A stretch of DNA of 32,000 bases from Arthrobacter globiformis. Lineage in GTDB: Bacteria > Actinomycetota > Actinomycetes > Actinomycetales > Micrococcaceae. The notes under the pieces are model-generated. The model saw nothing but the letters and a program-made list of their open reading frames with translations. It was not told the DNA's origin and searched no databases. The DNA lies in contig NZ_JAUSYZ010000001.1 in NCBI RefSeq assembly GCF_030817195.1, positions 974,007 to 1,006,006 of the forward strand. The letters run 5' to 3'. Below are positions 19,163 to 31,685 of this stretch, piece after piece; position 1 is the first letter of the stretch, and the number at the start of each line of letters is the position of its first letter. The position numbers and the translations under genes are program-made.

Positions 19163-19414
19163 ACGCGTCCTCACGTTTGGTCGCTTCATTCCAGACGCTT
19201 CCTCACTTTTGGTCGCCTCATCCCGAACGCTTCCTCACGTTTGGTCGCTTCATCCCAGACGCGTCCTCACGTTTGGTCGCTTCATCCCGAACGCGTCCTC
19301 ACTCTTTGAGGAAGCGTTTGGCGTGGGGCGACGGGATCTGAGGAAGCGTCCGGCGTGGGGAGGCAGGACCTGAGGAAGGGTTGGTGGAATCGGTGCGAAA
19401 CGTGAGGAAGCGTC
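19163..19414. repeat. Mirrored tandem-repeat array with a 32-bp period: 4.5 direct units followed by 3.5 inverted units
   Basis: Units start at 19163, 19195, 19227, 19259 and 19291 with the core ACGC[GT]TCCTCA. The inverted core TGAGGAAG[CG]GT occurs at 19307, 19339, 19371 and 19403. The symmetry centre is near 19304. The array fills the gap between the ppc stop and the ABC ATPase stop. Confidence 0.9.
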
Positions 19415-20171
19415 AACTGCCGTAGTGGACCACGATGGTCCGGCGGGGCGTGCTGCTGGGGAAGCCGTCGCCGTCGTCGGAGTAGGCCACGGTGCTCACG
19501 CGCACACCGTAGAGGGCTGACAGCTGGGCGTCGGTCAGGAGCTCCGCTGCCGCGCCGGTCCGCACCCCAGCGTGGCCCAGCAGGACCACGCGGTCGGCCA
19601 GGTGCAGGGCGTGGTCGGGATGGTGGGTGCTGAGGAGCAGGGCCATTCCGTCCGCCATCAGTTCACGCAGCAGCGTCAGGACGCGGGCCTGGTTCTTGAG
19701 GTCGAGGCCGGTGGCGGGCTCGTCCAGCACCAGGACGGGCGAGCCGGCGGCAATGGCCCGGGCGATCAGGATCAGCTGCTGCTCGCCGCCGCTGAGGGTG
19801 GGGAAACGCCGGTCCCGCAGCCCGGCCGCGCCCACCCGTTCCATCGCCTCCAGAGCTGCCTCATGGTCGGAGGGCCCGGGTGTCCGGAACACTCCAACGT
19901 GCCGGGCGCGCCCCATCAGGACCATGTCCAGCGCCCGGTAGGCAAAGGCGCTCCCATGCGCCTGCGGAACGTACCCGGCGCTCTCGCTGAGCCGGACCGT
20001 TCCCTCCTGCGGGTCCAGCAGTCCCGCGGCGCAGCGCACCAGCGTGGTCTTGCCGCTGCCGTTCGGGCCCAGCACGGCGGTGGCGGTTCCCGGCGGCACG
20101 CGGAAGCTGACGCCGCGGAACACCCAGTCCCGGGGCGAATAACAGAAGCCCACGCCGTCGAGTTCAAGCAC
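19413..20171 (-). CDS. ABC transporter ATP-binding protein, FecE/BtuD type
   Basis: Walker A GPNGSGKT, signature LSGGEQQLILIARAI, Walker B VLVLDEPATGLD. The GTG start overlaps the permease 3' end by 8 nt. Confidence 0.85.
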   Translation of the reverse strand: MLELDGVGFCYSPRDWVFRGVSFRVPPGTATAVLGPNGSGKTTLVRCAAGLLDPQEGTVRLSESAGYVPQAHGSAFAYRALDMVLMGRARHVGVFRTPGPSDHEAALEAMERVGAAGLRDRRFPTLSGGEQQLILIARAIAAGSPVLVLDEPATGLDLKNQARVLTLLRELMADGMALLLSTHHPDHALHLADRVVLLGHAGVRTGAAAELLTDAQLSALYGVRVSTVAYSDDGDGFPSSTPRRTIVVHYGS

Positions 20172-21300
20172 TGTCCCAGACCTTCTCGCGGTTCCGGCGC
20201 AGGAGCAGGAAAAACACGGGTGCGCCGATCAGGGCCGTCAGGACGCCGAGCGGGATCTCTCCGGCGGTTGCTGTGCGGGCGATGGTGTCCACCAGGACGA
20301 TGTAGGCGCCGCCCAGCAGGAACGACACGGGCAGGAGGACACGGTGGTCCGGGCCCACCCACATCCGGGCAAGGTGGGGGATCACCAGGCCAACCCAGCT
20401 GACGGCGCCGCTGACGGCCACAGCGCCGGCCACGATCAGCGCCACGGACACCAGCACCACCCACCGGAGCGGGCGCGCGCGCACACCCAGAGCCGCCGCG
20501 TCCTCGTCTCCGAGTGACAGCACGTTGATCCGCCAGCGCAGGGCAACGAGGACGGCGGCTCCACCGAGGACGGGGATGAGGGCCACCGCGACTTTGGTGA
20601 AGGTGGCCGTGGACACGCTGCCGAGCAGCCAGAAGACGATGGCGGGCAACGTGGTGTTGGGGTCCGCAATGTAAGTCACCAGGGCAACCAGGGCGGAGAA
20701 GAAGGACCCCGTGACCACGCCGCCGAGCACGATCATGAGCATCGGCGTCCCCGCCCGGCCCGAGGTGATCAGGAACAGGGTTCCGAGGGCCAGCAGCCCG
20801 CACGCAAAGGAGCCGCCCACCAGGAGGAACGGACCCAGGCCGAGCAGCAGCGCCACGGCACCGCCGAAGGATGCGCCGGCGGAGACACCGATGATCTCGG
20901 GGCTGACCAGGGGGTTGCGGAAAATGGCCTGCAGCGCTGCGCCGCCGATGGCCAGGCCGCCGCCCACCAGCAAAGCGAGCAGCACCCGGGGCAGCCGGAC
21001 CAGCAGCACCACATTTAATTCGGTGCCGCTGGCCTGAACCGGGATCGGCCCGATTTGTGCGGTCAGGATCTGGACCACGTGGTCCAGCGGCACGCTGTAG
21101 CGCCCCACCGCCAGTGCCAGCACCGTCACCGCGGCCAGGAAGCAGGCACTAAGGGCAACGGGAACGACGACGGCGGGTTCCCGCCGTCGTGCCGTCGCCT
21201 TTCGTTCCACCGCCCCGGCCGGGGCGGAAGCCGGACCCGCCCGGGGCAGTGCCGGCCGCACCCGCCTTCGCAACCGTGGAGCGCCGGCCTCATCAAGCAT
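20164..21300 (-). CDS. FecCD/BtuC-family ABC permease (metal-chelate type)
   Basis: Polytopic, 378 aa. It carries the family C-terminal signature GEIPLGVLTALIGAPVFFLLLRR. The Arg/Pro-rich N-terminal 50 aa may be an over-extension. Confidence 0.8.
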   Translation of the reverse strand: MLDEAGAPRLRRRVRPALPRAGPASAPAGAVERKATARRREPAVVVPVALSACFLAAVTVLALAVGRYSVPLDHVVQILTAQIGPIPVQASGTELNVVLLVRLPRVLLALLVGGGLAIGGAALQAIFRNPLVSPEIIGVSAGASFGGAVALLLGLGPFLLVGGSFACGLLALGTLFLITSGRAGTPMLMIVLGGVVTGSFFSALVALVTYIADPNTTLPAIVFWLLGSVSTATFTKVAVALIPVLGGAAVLVALRWRINVLSLGDEDAAALGVRARPLRWVVLVSVALIVAGAVAVSGAVSWVGLVIPHLARMWVGPDHRVLLPVSFLLGGAYIVLVDTIARTATAGEIPLGVLTALIGAPVFFLLLRRNREKVWDSA

Positions 21301-22426
21301 TGAACTGACGGTAGTTGGCGGACGGCCCGTTCTCCGCGGTCCGGAGAATCTTGTCTAGTTCAGCCTTCGTGAGCTCGTGGTTGTACAGGAACCTGAAGTA
21401 TTCGGACGCCTTGTCCCGCACCGCCGACCTCTGCTGCGGGAAGGCGATGTCGCCCAGCCAGTGCCACATCAGCGGCGACTCCTGCCCGGGCGGATCCCAG
21501 CGGTAGCCGCCCAGCGGGACCTTGTAGACACGCTTCGAGCGGACCGCGGACACGTTTTGCCACACCGGGTCCGAGTAGATGTCCTGCGGCATGGCGGCGT
21601 CGAAGTTGCCCAGCAGGATGACCTCAGGATCCCAGCGCAGCACCTGCTCAATGTCCACGCCCACCATGCCGGAGCCGGTCAGCGGATCCTTGCCTGTTGG
21701 AGGGTTCGAACCTCCCACCAGCTTGATGTAGAAGTCGTTGTAGCTGTTGGCGCCGGCAACCTTGAGCCCGCCGGTGAAGCGGTTGAAGTACAGGATGCTC
21801 GGACCCTGGGCCGCCCGCCCGGATGCCAGTGTCTTGACCTCGGCGAGCTCCCGGTCGCTGCGCGTCTTTAGCTCGGTGGCACGTTCCGGCTTGCCGAGCA
21901 TGGCGGCAAACATGGCCACCCAGGCGTCCACGTCCTCCTGTGTGCCGGAGTTTTTCAGCCCCAGAACCTGAAGCCCGGCCTTCTCGAGGGGCTCGATGAG
22001 CTGCGCGTCCGACCATTGGACCACCACGTCCGGGTTGAGGGCCCGGATACTCTCAACGTTGGCGGTGAAGTCCTGGGTGGCGATGTCGTGCGGGAGGTCC
22101 AGGGCGGCGGGAAACATGGCGCCCATGATGCCGTCGCGCATGGCCGCCCAGGAGGCGTTGTGCATGGCGGTGAGATGGTCGGCGCTGCGGTCGACGGCCA
22201 CCAGCAGGGACGCCGACGGCATCGGGATCGTCACCACCCGCGCCACCGGCCGGGCAAAGGACAGGGTCCTGCCGCGCTGGTCCGTGAGGCTGATGCTGTT
22301 GGTGCTGCCCGCAGGGGACGACGGCGGGGCGCTGCCGGATGCGCCGCATCCGGCCAGCACGGCGGCGGAGCCGCCTGCAATGAACACCTGTAGGGCGGCG
22401 CGGCGGTTTAGGTCTGCAGCTGTCAT
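21293..22426 (-). CDS. Metal-chelate-type substrate-binding lipoprotein (FecB/BtuF/CeuE class) with a Tat-like signal
   Basis: The N-terminus has NRRAALQVF followed by the lipobox LAGC. Class III binding-protein blocks are present (RVVTIPM, LNPDVVVQW, WDPEVILLGNF). Confidence 0.8.
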   Translation of the reverse strand: MTAADLNRRAALQVFIAGGSAAVLAGCGASGSAPPSSPAGSTNSISLTDQRGRTLSFARPVARVVTIPMPSASLLVAVDRSADHLTAMHNASWAAMRDGIMGAMFPAALDLPHDIATQDFTANVESIRALNPDVVVQWSDAQLIEPLEKAGLQVLGLKNSGTQEDVDAWVAMFAAMLGKPERATELKTRSDRELAEVKTLASGRAAQGPSILYFNRFTGGLKVAGANSYNDFYIKLVGGSNPPTGKDPLTGSGMVGVDIEQVLRWDPEVILLGNFDAAMPQDIYSDPVWQNVSAVRSKRVYKVPLGGYRWDPPGQESPLMWHWLGDIAFPQQRSAVRDKASEYFRFLYNHELTKAELDKILRTAENGPSANYRQFNA

Positions 22427-22575
22427 CGTTGACTCCCTGCGCGTGGGTCTTCACAGCATCCGCTTCAAGGACAGGGCTGTCAACGCCTTCTCGGGTGTCC
22501 CGCGAAGGGCCGTCCCTTGTCCGCGCCATGGGCCGGTGCTACTTTCAGAAGACGCTCGCAGAAGGTGGCCACGGG

Positions 22576-23349
22576 ATGGTTATCGATGGTGCCCAGTTGT
22601 TTGTCCGCTATGCCTATCCGCCCAATTCACGCGGGAGTTGCGGGCCGCCGGACAGTGACGCCCTGCTGCACTACGGGCAGTCCGGCGTCACGGACCAGGG
22701 ACTCCGTGAACTGGCCAAGGGCTTCGCCGGCGCCTGGCCCTACCTCGAACTGATCGCGGGATCGCACCGCATTGCCGATCCGCTGGACGCCCGCGTGGTG
22801 GAGGCCTACTGGGTGGGCAACAGCCTTCTGGATACCGTCGGCATCACCAACATCGGCAATTCCATGGAGGACCGCTTCCGGGCCCGCACCGGGCGGCAGT
22901 TCCCGCATCTGGTGGAAGGCGTGCTGGCCGGCGGGGTCCCGCACCACAGTTTCCACGTGTTTGAGATCTACCCGTGGCTGGGCCTGCTCCGCGACGAACG
23001 CCGGCACGCCACCGCGCTGAACGTGCTGGACAGGTGCCGGATCCGCTGGGGACAGGTGCTCGCGATCACCGGGGACGACGCCGTCGTGCGGTCCCGGCCG
23101 CTGGTCTGGGACGGCACAGCCCTCGACATCGGCGAACCCGCGGTGGAGTCGGCCAAGTTCGCGGTGAACGGAACCGGCTTCGTGGAAGGGCTGGCCGTGG
23201 GCGACGTCGTGTCACTGCACTGGGACTGGGTGTGTGACCGCCTCTCGGCGCACCAGCTCCAGCAGCTGAAGCACTTTACTGCCCGGCATCTCCGCATCGC
23301 CAACAGCGGCGTCGAGCACCGCGGCGCCGCCATAGCGCTCGAACATTAG
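22576..23349 (+). CDS. Conserved hypothetical protein; the C-terminal 75 aa or so may be HypC/HupF-like
   Basis: The track ORF 22429..23349 is trimmed to the ATG at 22576, which follows GAAGGTGG. The product is 257 aa with YAYPPNSRGSCGP near the N-terminus. See the findings for the C-terminal similarity. Confidence 0.6.
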   Translation: MVIDGAQLFVRYAYPPNSRGSCGPPDSDALLHYGQSGVTDQGLRELAKGFAGAWPYLELIAGSHRIADPLDARVVEAYWVGNSLLDTVGITNIGNSMEDRFRARTGRQFPHLVEGVLAGGVPHHSFHVFEIYPWLGLLRDERRHATALNVLDRCRIRWGQVLAITGDDAVVRSRPLVWDGTALDIGEPAVESAKFAVNGTGFVEGLAVGDVVSLHWDWVCDRLSAHQLQQLKHFTARHLRIANSGVEHRGAAIALEH

Positions 23350-23374: not shown

Positions 23375-23725
23375 CTACGGTGACTGCGGCGCCGCGCCGT
23401 CGGGGTGTTCGGGGGTCTTGACGGCGGTGGCATCGCGGGCCGACGACTCGCCGGCCGGCCGGCCGGCAGGTGATTCATCGGTGCCCGTGTGCTCGCGTCC
23501 CGGTTCGGTGCCCTCCTCCTTGATGACGTCCTCGCCCCTGCGGGTGGTGCTGACGCCGACGCCGGCGGGAGCCGGGGCCGCGTCCTCCGGGGTTTCGTCT
23601 GCTCCGGGCTGGGCGGGTTCCTTCAGCGGCGGTTCACTGCCGAAGGCCCGCGCCGTGCCTGGTGCGGTGCCCTGCGTGGCGCCCTTTTCCGTGTCGTCGG
23701 GATCAGGCTGGTTTGTGGGTGACAT
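23375..23725 (-). CDS. Small acidic Pro/Gly/Glu/Thr-rich, probably disordered protein; last gene of the hydrogenase operon
   Basis: 116 aa. A strong SD (AAGGAGGG) lies 5 nt upstream of the ATG, embedded in the hypC 3' end with a 23-nt overlap. Third-position GC is high in this frame. Confidence 0.55.
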   Translation of the reverse strand: MSPTNQPDPDDTEKGATQGTAPGTARAFGSEPPLKEPAQPGADETPEDAAPAPAGVGVSTTRRGEDVIKEEGTEPGREHTGTDESPAGRPAGESSARDATAVKTPEHPDGAAPQSP

Positions 23726-24008
23726 GCTGCCCTCCTTGTGGTGGTTGTGCAGGTTGGGATCCGGGTCCGCTGTCCGCCGGGCGGCCCATCAGTTCCAGTC
23801 CATCCATGGCCTGTGCTGCGCCCGCGGCGTCCACGCGTTCCAGCGCGAAGCCCATGTGGATAAGGACCCATGTCCCGGGTTCGAGAGGGCCCTCATCCAG
23901 CAGCCCGATGTTAATCTTCCGCTGCACTCCGGCCACGTCGACGAGCGCGAGCTGGCCGCCGTAGCCCTCGAGGAGTTCGACGACCCTGCCGGGTATTCCG
24001 AGGCACAT
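23703..24008 (-). CDS. hypC: Hydrogenase assembly chaperone HypC/HybG/HupF family, with a C-terminal extension of about 25 aa
   Basis: The N-terminus is MCLGIPGRVV and the family motif GTWVLIHMGFAL is present. AAGGCGG lies upstream of the ATG. Confidence 0.9.
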   Translation of the reverse strand: MCLGIPGRVVELLEGYGGQLALVDVAGVQRKINIGLLDEGPLEPGTWVLIHMGFALERVDAAGAAQAMDGLELMGRPADSGPGSQPAQPPQGGQHVTHKPA

Positions 24009-24022
24009 GTACGGACACCGCC

Positions 24023-24604
24023 TTAGCTTGCAGTGGAGGAGCTTGGAGTGGAGGTCTGCTGGCCGAGCAGGGACCCGACGGCGGCGGCCGCCTCGGGCAC
24101 CGCCGCGGCCACCGCCGGCGAGAGACCGATGCCCTCGGACAGGTCGGCGGGGACACAGCCCACCACATACGTGGCAGGCAGGCTGCCGCCCATGGACCGA
24201 AGCCTGCCCAGCACGGCCGCCGGGTCCATGCCGTGGGGATCGAGCACGGCCCTGCCGTCCAGGTCCGCCGCGCTGACCTGCAGCACGCGGATGCTGCCGG
24301 GGGCCGAGTTCGCGTCCGGGGGCACCGTGTCCACGAGGACCAGGATGTCGACGCCGGCGAGCAGGTCGTAGGCCAGATGCATGCCGCGGATGCCGTAGTC
24401 CACCACTCGGACGCCGGGGTCCAGCGGCTGCGGGTGGGCGGCGAGGTGCCGCGCCACCTCGGGACCGAAGCCGTCGTCGTGCAGGAACATGTTCCCGACG
24501 CCGGCCACGAGGACGCCGCCGGTGCGCTCGCCGGACTCATGCGCGCCGGAACCCTGCGCGGCAAACTTCTGCGGGGCGCTCCCGGCCCTGCTGGCGGCGG
24601 TCAC
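24023..24604 (-). CDS. [NiFe]-hydrogenase maturation endopeptidase (HyaD/HybD/HoxM family)
   Basis: Diagnostic blocks: VAGVGNMFLHDDGFG, LVLVDTV and DPHGM. The track ORF runs to 24793. I place the start at the GTG at 24604 because it overlaps (GTGA) the stop of the micro-ORF and avoids overlapping the upstream gene. The start remains uncertain. Confidence 0.8.
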   Translation of the reverse strand: MTAASRAGSAPQKFAAQGSGAHESGERTGGVLVAGVGNMFLHDDGFGPEVARHLAAHPQPLDPGVRVVDYGIRGMHLAYDLLAGVDILVLVDTVPPDANSAPGSIRVLQVSAADLDGRAVLDPHGMDPAAVLGRLRSMGGSLPATYVVGCVPADLSEGIGLSPAVAAAVPEAAAAVGSLLGQQTSTPSSSTAS

Positions 24605-24720
24605 ATCCGCCGCACTTTCATGTACCGCCGGATATCCGGAACTGCGCGGATCCCGGCGTAGATGCCCCAGAGGGCCATCGCCGCCAGCACCGAAACAGTG
24701 GCCATTCCTATTGCCTTCAT
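24601..24720 (-). CDS. 39-aa single-pass membrane micro-protein, not in the supplied ORF track
   Basis: Hand translation gives MKAIGMATVSVLAAMALWGIYAGIRAVPDIRRYMKVRRM. The ATG overlaps the TGA of the 466-aa gene (ATGA) and the TGA overlaps the protease GTG (GTGA). A purine-rich GGAGGGAAAGGAAAA lies upstream. Confidence 0.65.
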   Translation of the reverse strand: MKAIGMATVSVLAAMALWGIYAGIRAVPDIRRYMKVRRM

Positions 24721-26117
24721 TGCGGGTTTTCCTTTCCCTCCAGCGGTTCGAGCTCGTCGGGCGCGTAGTAGAAGGACCGGCCGTAGCCCTCATGGAGATC
24801 GGCCGCCGGATCCTGCTCCAGGACGAGCCCGACGTGGGTGCCGCCGTCGACGTCGAAATGTACGCTGGTGACCCGCCCGGTCTGTCCGCCGAAGAACAGG
24901 TCCTGGGCGTCGGCGCGCCGTTTCGGGTGCACCCTCACCCGGCTGCCGCGCGCCACTGCCACACCATTGATCACGACGGCGTCCTCGTCCGGCCGGACAC
25001 CGGCCTCCGCCTCAGGATTCCACCAGGGAACGTCCTGACCGGCTGTGCTCCATGCTTCGGCGGGATCCGCGGCGAACGCGTGCGGGTTCCGCAGAGCGCC
25101 GTGCAGCTGCTGGAGGTCCTCCGGCGACATCGCCTCGCAACGGTCGATGACGGCGGCGGCGCGCGGGTCCGTGGCCCGCGCCTCGGCCTTTTCCTCATCG
25201 GTCAGCGTGAGCACCCGCAGTGTCAGGATCTCGTCGATCTCGGTGGAGTCGTACAGCGCCACCGAACTTTCCGGGGCGACGGCGGGATGGTCGTACAGGA
25301 TGATGGGCGAGATCAGCAGCACGTCGGTCTGGCCTTCCGGACCCGCCAGCACGGGCCAGCAGCGGTGCTGGGAACACCGCCCGGCTGCGGGCTGTGCCCA
25401 CTCCGGCGGGTCCAGCAGCGAGACGAAGTCGCCGTCCCGCACGCCGAGCAACACGTGTGCGCCAATGAAGGAGACCGCGGTGGCGTCCTGCCGGTTCCCG
25501 GCAGGCAGCGGACGCGCCGGCAGCGGACGGGCAGGCAGGAAATCGGCCGTGTTGGCCGCGGTGACGCTGAGCCGCAGCAGCCCGCCGGAGTCTTCGGCGG
25601 CGCTGAGCCGCAGTTCGCCGCGGAGAGCCCGACGGCGGCGCACCAGTCTGCCGGCCGGCCTCCCGGCGTCGTTCTTCAGTTCCTCCACGTCGAGTCCCTC
25701 CGGGACCTCCACCGGCAGGACCAGTCCGGTCCGGAGCTGGGCCACGGAGAAGGGCCCGAACGCCGCTTCCTGTTCGACGGCCTCGTCCCAGCTCAGCCAG
25801 TTCGCACCGCCGACGGCGAGGCTGTCCACGGGAGTGAACCCGCCGCCGTCGTCCGCTTTTTCTGCCGTGCGCGCCTGCAGCTGCAGAAAGCGGAAGTGGA
25901 TTTCGAGCCCGGCCTGGGCTCCCGGGGCAAGCAGGCAGTCGGCGGACATGGACGGCTCCTCCCCGCTGCCGTCCGCGGCGGCCCCCTGCGGACCCAGGAT
26001 CCCGAACTGCCACCGGGCCTGGTTCTTCTGGGCCGAGGCGCGGTAGGGGTAGAGCAGGTAGCCCTCGTAGAGGACGGCGTCGGCGACGGCGCGGGCAAGG
26101 GCCAGGCTGGTGTTCAT
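24717..26117 (-). CDS. Conserved hypothetical protein of the hydrogenase operon, 466 aa
   Basis: The track ORF 24717..26249 is trimmed to the ATG at 26117, which overlaps the upstream stop (ATGA). The N-terminus reads MNTSLALARAVADAVLYEGYLLYPYR. I recognise no motif. Confidence 0.7.
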   Translation of the reverse strand: MNTSLALARAVADAVLYEGYLLYPYRASAQKNQARWQFGILGPQGAAADGSGEEPSMSADCLLAPGAQAGLEIHFRFLQLQARTAEKADDGGGFTPVDSLAVGGANWLSWDEAVEQEAAFGPFSVAQLRTGLVLPVEVPEGLDVEELKNDAGRPAGRLVRRRRALRGELRLSAAEDSGGLLRLSVTAANTADFLPARPLPARPLPAGNRQDATAVSFIGAHVLLGVRDGDFVSLLDPPEWAQPAAGRCSQHRCWPVLAGPEGQTDVLLISPIILYDHPAVAPESSVALYDSTEIDEILTLRVLTLTDEEKAEARATDPRAAAVIDRCEAMSPEDLQQLHGALRNPHAFAADPAEAWSTAGQDVPWWNPEAEAGVRPDEDAVVINGVAVARGSRVRVHPKRRADAQDLFFGGQTGRVTSVHFDVDGGTHVGLVLEQDPAADLHEGYGRSFYYAPDELEPLEGKENPQ

Positions 26118-26767
26118 GGCAGCTCCCCGGACACGTCGGCGGTGGCCTGGGCGAGCAGCTTCTCCACGGCGGCCTCCCAGGACGTGAGGCCCCGTGAGGA
26201 CTTGTACCGGGCGAGTGCTGCCAGGACGTCCCGGTCCAGGCGGATCCATCCGGTGTTGGGGAAGTACTGGTCCATCAGGCTGCGCCAGGCGGCGACGGGC
26301 AGCTGGTAGGACGCCTCAAGGTCCCAGGGCACCTGTTCCACGGTGAACCCCGTCTGCCCCCTGGTGAACACCGTGCCGGAGAACAGCAGCTCCAGCGGTA
26401 TCTCGCCGTCGTGCAGGGCATGCAGGTATTTGGCGGCGGCAACGTCGAAATCAAACGTGCAGGGCAGCGGGAGGTCCACCTCGGTGCTGCCCGTGAAACC
26501 CTGCACCATGGTGCTGCACTGCATCCAGACGAACGACTTCAGGGTGGTGGGCCAGCGCCCGCGGTCGCCGAAGAGGTCCAGCAGGCCGGTCTCCTCCCCG
26601 GACGAGTAGCCGCGGCGCTGCGGCAGGATCCGGACCTGGCAGCGGAGCGCCACAGCGTGCACCACGGCACCCGTGCCCTCCGTCACCTGGAGCCTGGCGG
26701 TCAGCTGCGGGGCGGCGGCGTAAGGTTCGGGCCGGATCTCCAGCACGGCGAAGGAAAGTTCGGTCAC
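26114..26767 (-). CDS. Conserved hypothetical protein of the hydrogenase operon, 217 aa
   Basis: The GTG start overlaps the upstream stop (GTGA) and the stop overlaps the next ATG. I recall such genes annotated as a DUF (possibly DUF6084) in Hhy loci, but this is unverified. Confidence 0.7.
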   Translation of the reverse strand: MTELSFAVLEIRPEPYAAAPQLTARLQVTEGTGAVVHAVALRCQVRILPQRRGYSSGEETGLLDLFGDRGRWPTTLKSFVWMQCSTMVQGFTGSTEVDLPLPCTFDFDVAAAKYLHALHDGEIPLELLFSGTVFTRGQTGFTVEQVPWDLEASYQLPVAAWRSLMDQYFPNTGWIRLDRDVLAALARYKSSRGLTSWEAAVEKLLAQATADVSGELP

Positions 26768-27549
26768 CGGAAGCCTCCAGTGCCCGACGGGCGGCTGGTG
26801 GACGCCGTGCTGCCGGATGCCGCGCCGCCTGATGCCTCGCCGCCTGATGCCTCGCCGGCGGGATCTGCCGGTGCCGGAACGCTGCGGCGGCCAATCCGGT
26901 CGAAGAAGGCGGTGAGCTCATCGCGCGCCTCCTGGCCGCCGTCGAACCCCCGCCAGAGACGGCGCAGCCGGCCCACCAGCTCGTAGCAGGCGTCCACCGG
27001 AACGAGGTGGCAGTCCGCGGCGGCCCTGCCCGGACTCGGGCCGCGGATCAGCAGAGCCTCGGTGTCCGGCGCCGCGAGGCCGAGGGCAGGATTGCGGGCC
27101 AGCACGCCGTCCCAAGCGGCGAGGGGCAGTTCCGATTCCGTGGCCCCGGCCGGGCCCGGGTAGAACGCCACCGTGCGGCCGAGCCTGGAGCTGCGGAAGA
27201 AGAATGCCAGGCCCACCGGAATTTCCAGTTCGTCCCACTGCCCCGGACCGAGATCGAAGTCGGGGAAGGAGAGATATCTGTCCGGCACCGAGCGGTAGCG
27301 CATGTGGGCGGTGGCATCGGTGAAGAGGAGGTAGCAGGGCCGGCAGGTGCACATCATCGCGTGGCTCTCCAGGTCCACCACGTGCTGGTGTGCGTCGGGA
27401 ATCGGTTCGCCGCACATTTCGCAGCATTCCCCGGCGGCGGGAGCGGGCCGGTTCGCGGAAATCCGCCGCAGTAGGGCCACCGGCAAGGCGCCGCTGGCCC
27501 GGCCGGTCCCCGCGCCGCGCCCTGTACCTCCTCCGTTCTCCACGTTCAT
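26764..27549 (-). CDS. Conserved hypothetical Cys-cluster protein of the hydrogenase operon, 261 aa
   Basis: The track ORF 26764..27708 is trimmed to the ATG at 27549, 1 nt after the upstream stop. It contains the motif CCEMCGEPIPDAHQHVVDLESHAMMCTCRPC (C-x2-C ... C-x-C-x2-C). It may be the family annotated DUF5947, unverified. Confidence 0.7.
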   Translation of the reverse strand: MNVENGGGTGRGAGTGRASGALPVALLRRISANRPAPAAGECCEMCGEPIPDAHQHVVDLESHAMMCTCRPCYLLFTDATAHMRYRSVPDRYLSFPDFDLGPGQWDELEIPVGLAFFFRSSRLGRTVAFYPGPAGATESELPLAAWDGVLARNPALGLAAPDTEALLIRGPSPGRAAADCHLVPVDACYELVGRLRRLWRGFDGGQEARDELTAFFDRIGRRSVPAPADPAGEASGGEASGGAASGSTASTSRPSGTGGFR

Positions 27550-27550
27550 G

Positions 27551-28801
27551 TCAGCTGTCCTGTCCCGCGGCTGCCTGCAACGCCGGTGCCATGGCGGCTG
27601 CCGGCGCAGATGCGGGCACCGAGGCCGCTGGCGCGGACAGCGCAGCTGGCGCAGACACCGGGGCCAGCCCGGACAACGGGGCCGGTTCCGCCGCAGGCAC
27701 TGCGGCATGGGCCGGTGCTGCAGCCGGGGCTTCCGCCGGCTCTGCCGTTTCGTGGACCGCGGGGACCTCCAGGCCGGCCGGCGTCACCAGCGGGAGTGCC
27801 TGCACCGGCGTCACCTCGGCAGGGGCCACCGGTACCGGCGGAGCCGGCAACGGCGCGGACTGCACGGACACTGTCGGAACCGCCACGGACATGACTCCGT
27901 TCCGGACCAGCAGCGGCAGCGGCTCCAGGTGCAGGTCCTTGTCCTCAAGGCAGGCACCCGCACGCCTTACGTCAAAGTGCCCGCGGCAGGTGGGGCAGCG
28001 CAGCAGGCCCCCATCGGCAGGCGCCGCGAGGGCGCGCTGCAGTACGGCGCCGGCCATGGAGCCGGTGCAGCGCGGGCAATAGTCGCGGTAGGCGTAGATG
28101 TCCTGACCGGTGCGGCAGGCCAGCACCGGATAGCCGCCGACCAGGAAACCCGCCACCTCGCCGGCTTCGAGCCCGGCGACCTCCGGAAGCGGTTCCCACG
28201 TGCCGCCGGACATGTCGTGCCAGGATTCCGCCGGCGTTCCGCCCGCCGGATTGTTCACTCGGACCAGCAGTGAGTCCACCGGAATCAGCGCCGGTGAGCC
28301 TGGCTGCTTTTCCGCCTCGACGACGTCGATGGCCGTCACTTCCGGCGCGGCGTTCTGGATGGCTTCCTCAACGGCGTATTTGAGGGTGACGGACGACGAC
28401 GGGCACCCCTGGCAGGTGCCCAGCAGCTTGAGCCGGACCACGCCGTCGGGGCTGATGCCTTCCAGTTCCACGTCGCCGCCGTGCGATCCCAGGTAGGGCC
28501 GGACGCTGTCCAGCGCCGCCGCCACCCGTGCCTCCATCGAATGGGGGTGCAGCCCGTGGATCACCAGGAGGCCGGCCACCAGGCTGTCAGCGGTGAGCGC
28601 TTCCAGAGTGGCGTCGTCGAGCTTTCCCTGGGCCTGCAGGATCTCCATGATCCGCTGCAGTCCGGCGCCGTAGAGGTCTGTCACCTGCCGGACCAGGTCC
28701 TCGGCACGGCCGCGGGCCACCGCCCCGCCGGCGCCGAGGGCGTCAAGGAGTGTGCCGATTTGGTCGCCGTTCTGCAACGGCGGCCGGTCCCCGCCGAGCA
28801 T
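27551..28801 (-). CDS. NifU-domain iron-sulfur protein (HhyE-like) with a Rieske-like all-Cys domain and an Ala/Pro-rich tail
   Basis: 416 aa. A NifU C-terminal-type block is present (VRPYLGSHGGDVEL...LLGTCQGCPSS). A second domain carries CPRC ... CPTCRGHF. The last 110 aa or so are Ala/Pro low-complexity. The ATG lies 3 nt after the hhyL stop. Confidence 0.8.
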   Translation of the reverse strand: MLGGDRPPLQNGDQIGTLLDALGAGGAVARGRAEDLVRQVTDLYGAGLQRIMEILQAQGKLDDATLEALTADSLVAGLLVIHGLHPHSMEARVAAALDSVRPYLGSHGGDVELEGISPDGVVRLKLLGTCQGCPSSSVTLKYAVEEAIQNAAPEVTAIDVVEAEKQPGSPALIPVDSLLVRVNNPAGGTPAESWHDMSGGTWEPLPEVAGLEAGEVAGFLVGGYPVLACRTGQDIYAYRDYCPRCTGSMAGAVLQRALAAPADGGLLRCPTCRGHFDVRRAGACLEDKDLHLEPLPLLVRNGVMSVAVPTVSVQSAPLPAPPVPVAPAEVTPVQALPLVTPAGLEVPAVHETAEPAEAPAAAPAHAAVPAAEPAPLSGLAPVSAPAALSAPAASVPASAPAAAMAPALQAAAGQDS

Positions 28802-28804
28802 GGC

Positions 28805-30598
28805 CTACTCGCCGGTCAGGGTCTGGGTGGGGGAGTGCAGCATATCCAGCGTCTGCCCGTTGCCCAGGTACATGTGGACGCCGCACGGCAGGCAGGGGTC
28901 GAAGCTGCGGACGGTGCGCATGATGTCGATGCCTTTGAAGTGCTCCCGGTCGTTCTCCTCGAAGATGGGCTGCCCCTGGACCGCGTCCTCATAGGGCCCG
29001 GACACGCCGTTGGAATCGGTGGGGCTGGCGTTCCAAGGGGTGGGCGGGTAGGGATGGTAGTTGGCGATCTTGCCGTCGCGGATCACCATGTGGTGGGACA
29101 GGACCCCGCGGACCGCCTCGGTGAAGCCGCAGCCGATACCTTCATCGGGGACCTCGAAGGTTTCCCACGTCTTGGTGCGGCCGGCCCGGATTTCCTCGAG
29201 GGCCTTTTCCGCGAAGTGCAGCGCAGCAGCCGCGGCGTACGCCTGGAAGTAGGTGCGGGCGCGGTTGCGTTCGAGCGTGTTGCTCCACTGCGGGATGTTC
29301 CACTCGAAAGTCACGGGCCCCTTCAGCGCGGTCTTGGGCAGGTTGATCTGGACGCTCCTGCCGGTGGCCTTGATATAGCCAATGTCCACGAGTCCGGCGA
29401 GCGCCGTGGCCCAGAGGCGGGCCAGCGGGCCGCCGCCGGTGTCCAGGGCGAGGTTGTCCTGGCCATCGAACCAGCGCGGGGACATGACCCAGCTGTACTT
29501 GTCCGAAAGGTCGCGCTTCTGCGGCCGCGGGTTGGTGTGCTGGTTCCAGGGATGCCTGCGGTCCACAGGGTTGCCCAGGGGGTCGTGGGTGACGAACATT
29601 TCCTGGTCTTCCCAGTCCTCGTAGTACGAGGAGCCCAGCATGATCCGCAGGCCCAGGTTGATCCGCACCAGGTCGGTGGTGACCAGCTTGCCGTCCACCA
29701 CCACGCCCGGGGTGACGAACATCTTCCGGCCCCACTCGGTCATGTCCTTGTACTCGAAGTTGCAGTAGTCCGGGTCCTGCAGGGATCCCCAGCAGCCCAG
29801 CAGCGTGCGGCGCAGCCCCACCTGCTCGTAGCCCGGCAGCGCCTCGTAGAAGAAATCGAACAGGTCGTCGTGCATCGGGACGACCTTCTTCATGAACTCG
29901 ACGTAGCGCATCAGCCGGGTGAGGTAGTCCGTCATCAGTTGGATGGTAGCCACCGTCCCCACGCCGCCCGGATAGAGCGTGGAGGGGTGAACGTGGCGGC
30001 CCTCCATGAGGCAGAACATTTCACGGGTGAGGCGGCTGACCTGCAGCGCTTCCCGGTAGAACTCGCCGGTGAACGGATTCAGCGAGCGCATGATGTCGGC
30101 GATGGTGCGGTAGCCGTGGTCGCCCTCGTGCGGCGCCCTGGTGTTCTCGGCCTTGGCCAGGACGCCGGGGTTGGTTTCGGAGACCATCTTTTCGCAGTAG
30201 TCCACGCCGACGAGGTTTTCCTGGAAGATGTTGTGGTCGAACATGTACTCGGCCGCTTCACCCATGTTGACGATCCACTCGCCCAGGTTTGGCGGCTTCA
30301 CGCCGTAGGCCATGTTCTGCGTGTAGCAGGAGCAGGTGGCGTGGTTGTCGCCGCAGATCCCGCAGATACGGCTGGTGATGAAGTGGGCGTCCCGCGGATC
30401 CTTGCCCTTCATGAAGATGGAGTAGCCGCGGAAGATCGAGGAGGTGCTCTTGCATTCCACCACCTGGTTGTTCTCGAAGTCGATCTTTGTGTAGATGCCG
30501 AGGCTGCCGACGATCCTGGTGATGGGGTCCCAGTTCATCTCCACCAGGTTGTTGTTGCCCGTTCCGGCTCCGGAACCCATGGGAATTGTGGACGTCAT
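28805..30598 (-). CDS. hhyL: [NiFe]-hydrogenase large subunit, group 1h (formerly group 5, high-affinity Hhy type)
   Basis: 597 aa. The N-terminal site is TSRICGICGDNH and the C-terminal site is SFDPCLPCGVH. As I recall them, these are the L1 and L2 signatures that define group 5/1h. Confidence 0.92.
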   Translation of the reverse strand: MTSTIPMGSGAGTGNNNLVEMNWDPITRIVGSLGIYTKIDFENNQVVECKSTSSIFRGYSIFMKGKDPRDAHFITSRICGICGDNHATCSCYTQNMAYGVKPPNLGEWIVNMGEAAEYMFDHNIFQENLVGVDYCEKMVSETNPGVLAKAENTRAPHEGDHGYRTIADIMRSLNPFTGEFYREALQVSRLTREMFCLMEGRHVHPSTLYPGGVGTVATIQLMTDYLTRLMRYVEFMKKVVPMHDDLFDFFYEALPGYEQVGLRRTLLGCWGSLQDPDYCNFEYKDMTEWGRKMFVTPGVVVDGKLVTTDLVRINLGLRIMLGSSYYEDWEDQEMFVTHDPLGNPVDRRHPWNQHTNPRPQKRDLSDKYSWVMSPRWFDGQDNLALDTGGGPLARLWATALAGLVDIGYIKATGRSVQINLPKTALKGPVTFEWNIPQWSNTLERNRARTYFQAYAAAAALHFAEKALEEIRAGRTKTWETFEVPDEGIGCGFTEAVRGVLSHHMVIRDGKIANYHPYPPTPWNASPTDSNGVSGPYEDAVQGQPIFEENDREHFKGIDIMRTVRSFDPCLPCGVHMYLGNGQTLDMLHSPTQTLTGE

Positions 30599-30626: not shown

Positions 30627-31685
30627 TTACCAGGTGCGCCGGGCCCCGGTGAGGAGCTCGGTTCCGGGCCGGCGCCACTTGGGCTCCTGGTCCAGCGTGT
30701 GCGTCGTGATGCCTCTCAGGGCCCGGATGGCGGATCCGTAGGGGCGGATGGTGCTGGTGGAAAGCTTGCCGCCGGGAGGCTCATCCATGAAGGGCATGAA
30801 CTTGTCCGGGAAGCCCGGCATGGTGCAGCCGATGCAGATGCCGCCGACGTTGGGGCAGCCGCCGATGCCGTTCATCCAGCCGCGCTTGGGCACGTTGCAC
30901 TTCACCACGGGACCCCAGCAGCCGAGCTTGACGATGCACTTGGGGGAACCGTACTCGGTGGCGAAGTCACCCTGCTCGTAGTAGCCGGCCCGGTCGCAGC
31001 CCTCGTGCACCGTCTTGCCGAACAGCCACGTCGGGCGCAGGTTTTCGTCCAGCGGAATCATCGGGGCCTGCCCCGTGGCCTGGTACAGCAGGTAGGTCAT
31101 GGTTTCGGAGAGGTTGTCGGGCTGGATCGGGCATCCGGGCACGCAGACAATGGGAATGCCGGCCTTGGACTTCCAGTCGTAGCCGAGGTAGTCCGGCACG
31201 CCCATGGCCCCGGTCGGGTTGCCTGCCATGGCATGGATGCCGCCGTAGGTGGCGCAGGTTCCCGCGGCGATGATGGCGGTGGCCTTGGGCGCCAGACGGT
31301 CCAGCCACTCGCTGGTGGTTATGGGCTGGCCGGTCTCGACGTCGTTGCCGAACCCGCACCAGTAGCCGCCGGGCTCATGGAGTTTCTCGTTGGGGATGGA
31401 TCCCTCGACCACCAGCACGAACGGTTCCAGTTCGCCCCGGTCCGCCTTGCGGAACCATTCCAGGAAATCGTCGGCCCCTTCTTGGGGACCGCATTCAAAG
31501 TCGATCAGTGGCCAGTGCATGGCGATCTTCGGCAGGCCGGGCAGCGCGCCGAGGGCGATTTCCTCGACGCTCGGCTGGGTGGCCGCCGTCAGGGCGACCG
31601 AATCGCCGTCACAACTGAGCCCTGCGTTGATCCACAGCACGTGGATGAGGGCTTCTTCGGCCTTAAGGGAAGTTTCCGTAGGCAT
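30627..31685 (-). CDS. hhyS: [NiFe]-hydrogenase small subunit, group 1h, no Tat signal peptide
   Basis: 352 aa. It begins MPTETSLKAEEALIHVLWINAGLSCDGDS with no RRxFxK leader. Cys-rich Fe-S binding blocks follow (GTCATYGG, CVPGCP, CIVKLGCWGP, GGICIGC). GAAAGAGG lies upstream of the ATG. Confidence 0.9.
   Translation of the reverse strand: MPTETSLKAEEALIHVLWINAGLSCDGDSVALTAATQPSVEEIALGALPGLPKIAMHWPLIDFECGPQEGADDFLEWFRKADRGELEPFVLVVEGSIPNEKLHEPGGYWCGFGNDVETGQPITTSEWLDRLAPKATAIIAAGTCATYGGIHAMAGNPTGAMGVPDYLGYDWKSKAGIPIVCVPGCPIQPDNLSETMTYLLYQATGQAPMIPLDENLRPTWLFGKTVHEGCDRAGYYEQGDFATEYGSPKCIVKLGCWGPVVKCNVPKRGWMNGIGGCPNVGGICIGCTMPGFPDKFMPFMDEPPGGKLSTSTIRPYGSAIRALRGITTHTLDQEPKWRRPGTELLTGARRTW

Follow-up and report, generated by a model that had tools for sequence, protein, structure and literature searches.

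The 32,000-nucleotide (nt) stretch of Arthrobacter globiformis DNA that we analysed (contig NZ_JAUSYZ010000001.1, positions 974,007 to 1,006,006; hereafter the window) carries an operon for a group 1h [NiFe]-hydrogenase, Hhy, and three consecutive genes of this operon are the hhaA, hhaB and hhaC of group 1h operons, a label matched by operon position only and not by sequence. With moderate confidence, we favour a 1h-specific role of the three products in the assembly or maturation of the enzyme over a role in electron relay or membrane coupling. This preference is drawn from the repeated fusion of HhaC to a maturation endopeptidase, from the lack of cofactor motifs in HhaB and HhaC, from the pace at which the trio evolves, which is that of the endopeptidase HupD and the NifU-domain protein HhyE and not that of the structural subunits HhyS and HhyL, and from the small size of active Hhy on native gels. 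In addition, the Cys/His motif of HhaA looks more like a C4 zinc finger than a ferredoxin motif, and we count this resemblance in favour of the assembly role.

The sequence-only reading of this DNA had given the name hhaABC and had taken the trio for conserved accessory genes of the group 1h operon with no assigned function. The name does exist in the literature for three conserved hypothetical genes directly after hhySL, and the results below support the accessory status. The trio is already known: two of its proteins belong to DUF families, the genes are named in papers and annotated in public records, and their function is uncharacterised. The copy in the window has no distinguishing feature and is not a new kind of system. 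In Thermomicrobium roseum, hhaABC (trd_1876-1874) are hydrogenase-associated conserved hypotheticals directly after hhySL and rise 5.1-, 4.8- and 6.5-fold together with hhySL in carbon-limited cells. The equivalence of these genes, and of MSMEG_2717-2715 in Mycobacterium smegmatis, to the trio of the window is one of synteny and literature only. Islam et al. discussed MSMEG_2717/PHG067 as an uncharacterised candidate (PMC6883350), and a comparative paper of 2026 still lists hypothetical proteins in the 1h cluster. Papers on Methylacidiphilum use 'hha' for hyp-type genes, so the label is ambiguous; the locus tags published for hhyS, hhyL and hupD of Methylacidiphilum run consecutively. Our literature search found no functional or structural study of hhaABC.

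The megaplasmid pHG1 of Cupriavidus necator H16 carries a NifU-family gene, DUF5947, DUF6084, a gene for a hypothetical protein of 476 amino acids (aa) and a protease gene, and shares families, order and overlaps with the window. This series corresponds to PHG066-PHG070, as assigned by position after the two structural genes, with PHG067-069 as the trio. The identities between the window and C. necator are ~39% for HhaA, ~43% for HhaB (42.7% over 97% of the query by tblastn, E 2e-52) and ~35% for HhaC, and the proteobacterial trio proteins align end to end with those of the window at 35-43% identity. The C. necator and Methylocystis loci differ from the window in that their HhyE is short and NifU-only and in that the membrane micro-ORF (open reading frame) that follows hhaC in the window is not annotated in them between HhaC and the protease.

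Relatives were gathered by scanning a single genome of each species; at least 594 species had an HhaA relative, and the locus counts given here refer to the best 80 loci, all of them from Actinomycetota. The order hhyS-hhyL-hhyE-hhaA-hhaB-hhaC-(micro-ORF)-hupD is present in 80/80 loci, as far as the contigs reach, and recurs on pHG1 and on a Methylocystis parvus plasmid, such that the trio always lies between hhyE and the endopeptidase or hypC gene in the 80 loci and the two proteobacterial plasmids. Over the 80 loci, HhaA, HhaB and HhaC diverge like HupD and HhyE (48-94% identity), whereas HhyS and HhyL retain 83-99%.

For co-occurrence, we searched an even sample of 301 Actinomycetota genomes with four queries; this is the one phylum that was sampled systematically, and other phyla are represented by the two plasmids and the literature. 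A 1h-type HhyL (at least 63% identity) occurs in 36 of the 301 genomes, and matches to DUF6084, DUF5947 and HhaC occur in 35 each, with one further weak partial match to HhaC. DUF6084 is carried by 35 of the 36 genomes with a 1h HhyL, and every genome with any member of the trio also has a 1h large subunit. Conversely, the trio was found in none of the approximately 92 genomes with only other [NiFe] large subunits (~40-43% identity, at most 43%, subgroup unassigned), nor in the rest of the 301. One of the exceptions (G108) is a contig-end case. The other (G264, contig C1, 4394000-4414500; loci L084 and L085) is a divergent 1h-like locus, with HhyL 72% and HhyS 64% identical, in which the genes after hhyL encode a short HhyE with only the NifU part and an HhaA-like protein, and DUF6084 is found nowhere in the genome. 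The sequence-only reading had proposed mapping the trio against other [NiFe] groups and had held that absence from most 1h loci would tell against it; the trio is in essentially all of the sampled 1h loci and, in this one phylum of 301 genomes, tracks the 1h large subunit.

The junctions were read directly from the sequence. The hhyE stop and the hhaA start form TGAcATG, with 1 nt between TGA and ATG; hhaA and hhaB overlap in GTGA, and hhaB and hhaC in ATGA, exactly as the sequence-only reading had described. A further ATGA joins the hhaC stop to the start of the micro-ORF, and Shine-Dalgarno-type GGAGG/GGGGAG sequences lie 5-6 nt 5' of the hhaB, hhaC and micro-ORF starts. At the three junctions of the trio, 4-nt overlaps occur in 56/79, 58/79 and 62/76 loci, and the overlaps annotated on pHG1 are 4, 8, 4 and 4 nt. 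Because the order is kept in 80 loci and the overlaps recur, including on pHG1, the gene arrangement is not a chance one. It is a chain of four genes in Actinobacteria and of three genes elsewhere, and it is specific to 1h hydrogenases. From the overlaps, the products of the chain are probably made in fixed proportion.

Among ten over-long HhaC representatives (599-765 aa), seven consist of a complete HhaC followed in one frame by a complete HycI-type endopeptidase (P0369, P0371, P0383, P0413, P0419, P0422 and P0432). The seven are 41-52% identical to one another in an alignment. Their linkers range from almost none to ~45 residues, and in each of them the frame runs directly into the LVAGIGNxFLGDDGFG motif of the protease; in the almost linker-free P0413, the end of HhaC passes straight into this N-terminal motif. 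Judged from the proteins alone, this pattern is more readily explained by fusions that are inherited and functional than by artefacts of sequencing. Moreover, there is one clean fusion of HhaB to HhaC (P0468). The length of a stop-free frame was not taken as evidence of fusion, because such frames are long by chance in DNA of 70% G+C.

HhaA and HhaB are also found in one ORF, at two loci (L065 and L076) and in more than 50 database clusters. We rejected these fusions as evidence of a complex, because many have a scrambled (WR)GFDGG region and come from single contigs of long-read metagenome-assembled genomes (MAGs) and are thus frameshift artefacts. The signature of the artefact is the replacement of the conserved WRGFDGG by out-of-frame text rich in Arg and Pro, and it was seen in 'DUF5947+DUF6084' proteins from long-read MAGs of the European Nucleotide Archive (P0246, P0252, P0254, P0256, P0260, P0264, P0269, P0273 and P0335; locus L038). 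A few of the single ORFs look clean, and none of those comes from a named isolate. Counts of domain fusions from long-read MAG sources are unreliable.

HhaC has no Pfam or NCBIfam model above the cut-off. Its family is large, with 3858 representatives at 50% clustering (E ≤ 1e-3; 1089 at E ≤ 1e-30) and matches to more than 8000 clusters at 90% identity. The AlphaFold2 (AF2) model, built from a 75-sequence alignment (predicted local distance difference test, pLDDT, 81.8; predicted template modelling score, pTM, 0.68), begins with a conserved N-terminal helix (AVLYEGYLLYPYR) that carries the invariant motif AVLYEGYxLYPYR. A predicted beta-rich core (~56-270), a helical segment (294-343) that is the most conserved stretch of the protein (DSTEIDEILTLR...TD) and a predicted C-terminal SH3-like barrel (~380-458) follow. 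The alignment contains no conserved Cys/His cluster, and C248 is the sole invariant Cys. In Foldseek searches against PDB, only the barrel matched, to SH3-like domains including PetP (template modelling score by target, TMt, 0.64-0.70), and the core had no credible match. Matches to DrmA and to the nitrile hydratase beta subunit were rejected as whole-protein matches (score by query, TMq, ≤ 0.20; root-mean-square deviation 17-23 Å); those to nitrile hydratase may come from the C-terminal barrel alone, which is a guess. A phage tail assembly chaperone family, Phage_TAC_7, matched 55 of the 75 HhaC members at 290-339 (window ~25100-25250), in all cases below the cut-off and with a best E of 2e-4. 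We regard it as a resemblance between helical segments and not as homology, and a Foldseek search against viral models matched the small C-terminal barrel only.

HhaA matches PF19372 above its cut-off of 25 bits (Table 1) over residues 43-222, which correspond to positions 2-176 of the 177 in the profile. The Cys string that the sequence-only reading had noticed is present, with CCEMCGEPIP at 42-51, MMCTCRPC at 65-72 and His at 54, 56 and 62. It forms an N-terminal module, C43-x2-C46...H54-x-H56...C67-x-C69-x2-C72, that is C4 zinc-ribbon-like. The alignment shows no variation at these seven residues or at C188, from Actinobacteria through to Alpha- and Betaproteobacteria; neither C42 nor C180 is conserved. 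The only family signal from outside is a weak match to zf-dskA_traR in 7 of 26 HhaA members (best E 0.012), the family searches gave no ferredoxin or rubredoxin match, and the motif of HhaA is not a canonical cluster-binding motif of such carriers. In the AF2 model of an HhaA-HhaB homologue, a short beta-hairpin metal module is followed by an alpha/beta domain with the invariant C188. The earlier suggestion of a Zn or Fe-S site is borne out as far as a metal site goes: the zinc-finger-like signature and the invariant Cys and His residues support one such site, possibly two, and do not indicate which metal it holds. The C-terminal tail of HhaA is of low complexity (window 26790-26860, residues ~232-245), contains a GEASG unit that is duplicated just short of the GTGA junction, and varies widely in length among homologues.

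HhaB clears the 25-bit cut-off of PF19562 over residues 2-211 (profile 2-211 of 213), and its 42-sequence alignment contains no conserved metal ligand or Cys/His cluster. The sequence-only reading had found no motif that it could assign in the trio beyond the Cys string. This claim is now narrower, because curated DUF families take in two of the three proteins. HhaA and HhaB were folded together as a natural single-ORF homologue, P0244 (locus L076), for which separate A and B sequences were aligned and the alignment was cleaned; P0244 served as a vehicle for joint folding only and not as evidence of fusion. The model (AF2; pLDDT 88.7, pTM 0.58) is confident for the domains and not for their mutual arrangement, and HhaB is predicted to be an immunoglobulin (Ig)-like beta-sandwich followed by C-terminal helices. 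Foldseek matches of the A-B model to the Kir cytoplasmic domain, the factor XIII barrel, TMEM106B and GH3 are to generic Ig-like sandwiches (TM ≤ 0.43), and no functional inference was drawn from them.

None of the searches, whether against Pfam, NCBIfam, PDB sequences or structures by Foldseek, connected the trio with a maturation factor or a redox protein that is already known. The known [NiFe] maturation factors (HypA-F, HupH/HoxQ, HyaE/HoxO, HupK/HoxV and HoxR) gave no Pfam or NCBIfam match to HhaA, HhaB or HhaC at E ≤ 0.01, and no consistent weak match to a maturation-factor family appeared among 26, 42 and 75 members of the three families, respectively. Against PDB sequences, nothing fell under E 0.2 by phmmer or by profile. 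Confident homology to a characterised maturation factor is what the sequence-only reading had said would overturn its proposal, and no such match was found.

In the O2-tolerant membrane-bound hydrogenases, HoxL, O, Q, R, T and V of C. necator and HyaE/F of Escherichia coli are likewise encoded by enzyme-specific genes, with the structural genes on one side and the protease or hyp genes on the other, and are needed for aerobic assembly; they have no sequence or profile match to the trio of the window. HoxO and HoxQ chaperone the signal peptide. Since the small subunits of 1h enzymes are reported to lack signal peptides (bioRxiv 10.1101/769216), such chaperoning cannot be the task of the trio. 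HoxR is cited in PMC6883350 as a small Cys4 metal protein.

According to the assembly role that we favour, HhaA, HhaB and HhaC would be accessory proteins of the group 1h enzyme whose joint production from a single transcript would be translationally coupled, and they would act in the assembly of HhySL and not in its catalytic or electron-transfer core. HhaC would work at or beside the last maturation step of the large subunit, where HupD would remove the C-terminal extension of HhyL; it could hold the HhyL precursor or present it, or else accompany the subunit after processing on the way to its partner or the membrane. HhaA would provide a Cys/His metal site, either a structural Zn or an Fe site for redox protection like that of the rubredoxin HoxR, and HhaB would be a beta-sandwich adaptor. 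A complex of the three, the step at which they act and the metal are what we infer from the evidence above.

A different role is suggested by the membrane. Of 74 actinobacterial loci, 73 have the DUF6893 micro-ORF directly after hhaC, and in most of them the hhaC stop and the micro-ORF start overlap in ATGA (4 nt). The peptide has one hydrophobic helix and a nearly invariant C-terminal SIPDIxRYLKxRxM, in which Met is always last. Hhy is strongly membrane-associated, more tightly than the group 2a hydrogenase Huc, by a mechanism that is not known, and it has neither a transmembrane segment nor a signal peptide (bioRxiv 10.1101/769216). Thus the trio, together with DUF6893 in Actinobacteria, could be partners of the mature enzyme that tether it to the membrane, pass electrons towards menaquinone by way of an Fe-S or Fe site in HhaA and the HhyE clusters, or do both. 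We consider this unlikely, though a serious rival of the assembly role. Its analogue would be HucM, the non-catalytic, operon-encoded scaffold and quinone conduit that links Huc, an oxidiser of atmospheric H2, to the membrane (PMC10017518). No homology of the trio to HucM was detected, and HucM co-purifies with Huc. The six Cys and two His of HhaA that are invariant across phyla suit a relay, and PHG067, the HhaA counterpart, has been put forward as an electron acceptor and proposed to bind an Fe-S cluster (PMC6883350). Translational coupling also fits subunits made in a fixed ratio. Furthermore, in the divergent G264 locus the HhaC-like gene lies just upstream of hhyS and directly downstream of a same-strand gene for a 443-aa protein that has a Rieske motif (CSHESGP...CPWHG) and membrane segments.

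Several features of the trio do not sit well with such a relay or tether. HhaB and HhaC have no cofactor motifs, HhaA has no ferredoxin or rubredoxin family signature, and C. necator and Methylocystis keep HhaABC without the micro-ORF. The fusion of HhaC to the protease in seven lineages is hard to square with a permanent subunit, and the trio evolves much faster than HhySL. The enzyme that Schafer et al. purified and crystallised from C. necator (2013/2016) reportedly consists of the two structural subunits only. In M. smegmatis, Hhy activity migrates as a low-molecular-weight species on native gels (bioRxiv 10.1101/769216). A more specific form of this idea, that HhaA-B-C and the 39-residue DUF6893 peptide form the module, so far missing, by which the 1h enzyme docks to the membrane and couples to quinone, as a non-homologous counterpart of HucM, appears to us quite improbable. 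If it were true, the module would explain both the tight hold on the membrane without a transmembrane segment and how electrons taken from atmospheric H2 enter the respiratory chain.

The trio could, finally, be a module for stability or quality control. As a scaffold or chaperone, it would keep the finished enzyme protected or in store during dormancy or control its oligomeric state, and it would serve neither cofactor insertion nor electron transfer. The induction of the operon in stationary phase and its connection with persistence are in keeping with this, as are the adaptor-like folds (an Ig-like sandwich, an SH3-like barrel and a zinc ribbon) and the lack of catalytic motifs. However, an essential step is indicated by the strict conservation across phyla and by the tight coupling within the structural operon, and the protease fusions point specifically to maturation; we consider this explanation highly unlikely.

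The assembly role has points against it as well. The trio has no detectable homology to any known maturation factor, so that only context and fusions carry the proposed role, and neighbouring genes with 4-nt overlaps fuse easily, which makes a fusion a sign of compatibility and not of a shared step. Many HhaA-HhaB fusions had to be discounted, because they are frameshifted genes of long-read MAGs, and with a pTM of 0.58 the A-B model gives no support for a fixed interface between the two proteins. The eight invariant Cys and His residues of HhaA could bind an Fe-S cluster. In addition, the coupling of HhaC to a membrane micro-protein and the tight membrane binding of Hhy fit a coupling role.

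The operon is compact and lies entirely on the minus strand of the window (Table 1), where it reads hhyS-hhyL-hhyE-hhaA-hhaB-hhaC-micro-ORF-hupD-hypC. The three ORFs of 261, 217 and 466 aa have the coordinates, sizes and strand that the sequence-only reading gave them, and their neighbours agree with those that it named, with a NifU and Rieske-like protein on the upstream side and a HycI-type protease on the downstream side. HhyL contains TSRICGICGDNH as its L1 motif and SFDPCLPCGVH as its L2 motif, both as given for groups 1h/5 (PMC5364354); a 22-aa C-terminal extension follows. In HhyE, the Rieske_2 match remained under the cut-off of the Pfam search, and a homologue of HhyE is needed for Hhy activity in M. 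smegmatis (PMC6883350). The putative start of hupD is a GTG that overlaps the stop of the micro-ORF.

Table 1. Features of the group 1h hydrogenase operon, in positions of the window.
Feature	Positions	Strand	Basis
hhyS, small subunit	30627..31685	minus	translation; 84-99% identical over 80 loci
hhyL, group 1h [NiFe]-hydrogenase large subunit	28805..30598	minus	translation, L1 and L2 motifs
hhyE, 416-aa NifU-domain and Rieske-like protein	27551..28801	minus	PF01106 79.7 bits
hhaA, 261 aa, ATG start, DUF5947	26764..27549	minus	PF19372 244 bits
hhaB, 217 aa, GTG start, DUF6084	26114..26767	minus	PF19562 325 bits
hhaC, 466 aa, ATG start, without Pfam family	24717..26117	minus	all family models below cut-off
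micro-ORF, 39 codons, single-pass membrane, DUF6893	24601..24720	minus	PF21833 34.9 bits (cut-off 24.6)
hupD/hycI-type maturation endopeptidase	~24023..24604	minus	TIGR00072 113.6 bits, PF01750 43.7 bits
hypC, chaperone	23703..24008	minus	

The G+C content of the window is ~68%, and the closest relatives of its proteins are from Arthrobacter and Pseudarthrobacter. Around the operon, hypC is followed by a 116-aa ORF without a Pfam match (23375-23725, minus strand), and a convergent ORF of 306 aa in its longest reading (22429-23349, plus strand; DUF6390, 303.7 bits) stands at the operon end; DUF6390 is another uncharacterised family that here adjoins hydrogenase maturation genes. An ATP-binding cassette (ABC) importer of the FecBCD type (19413-22426, minus strand; binding protein 377 aa, permease 378 aa, ATPase 252 aa) abuts the hydrogenase locus and may have a role in metal supply.

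Hydrogenases of group 1h are regarded as a major biological sink of atmospheric H2 and as enzymes that sustain soil bacteria in dormancy. The trio is the largest uncharacterised part of their operon, and the assignment of a role to it would fill a real gap concerning how the enzyme is assembled in air, how it is attached to the membrane and where its electrons go. What is new here is the quantified co-occurrence with the 1h enzyme, the description of the proteins at the level of folds, the invariant candidate ligands of HhaA and the confirmation of repeated HhaC-protease fusions, and together these lead to a testable preference for the assembly role.

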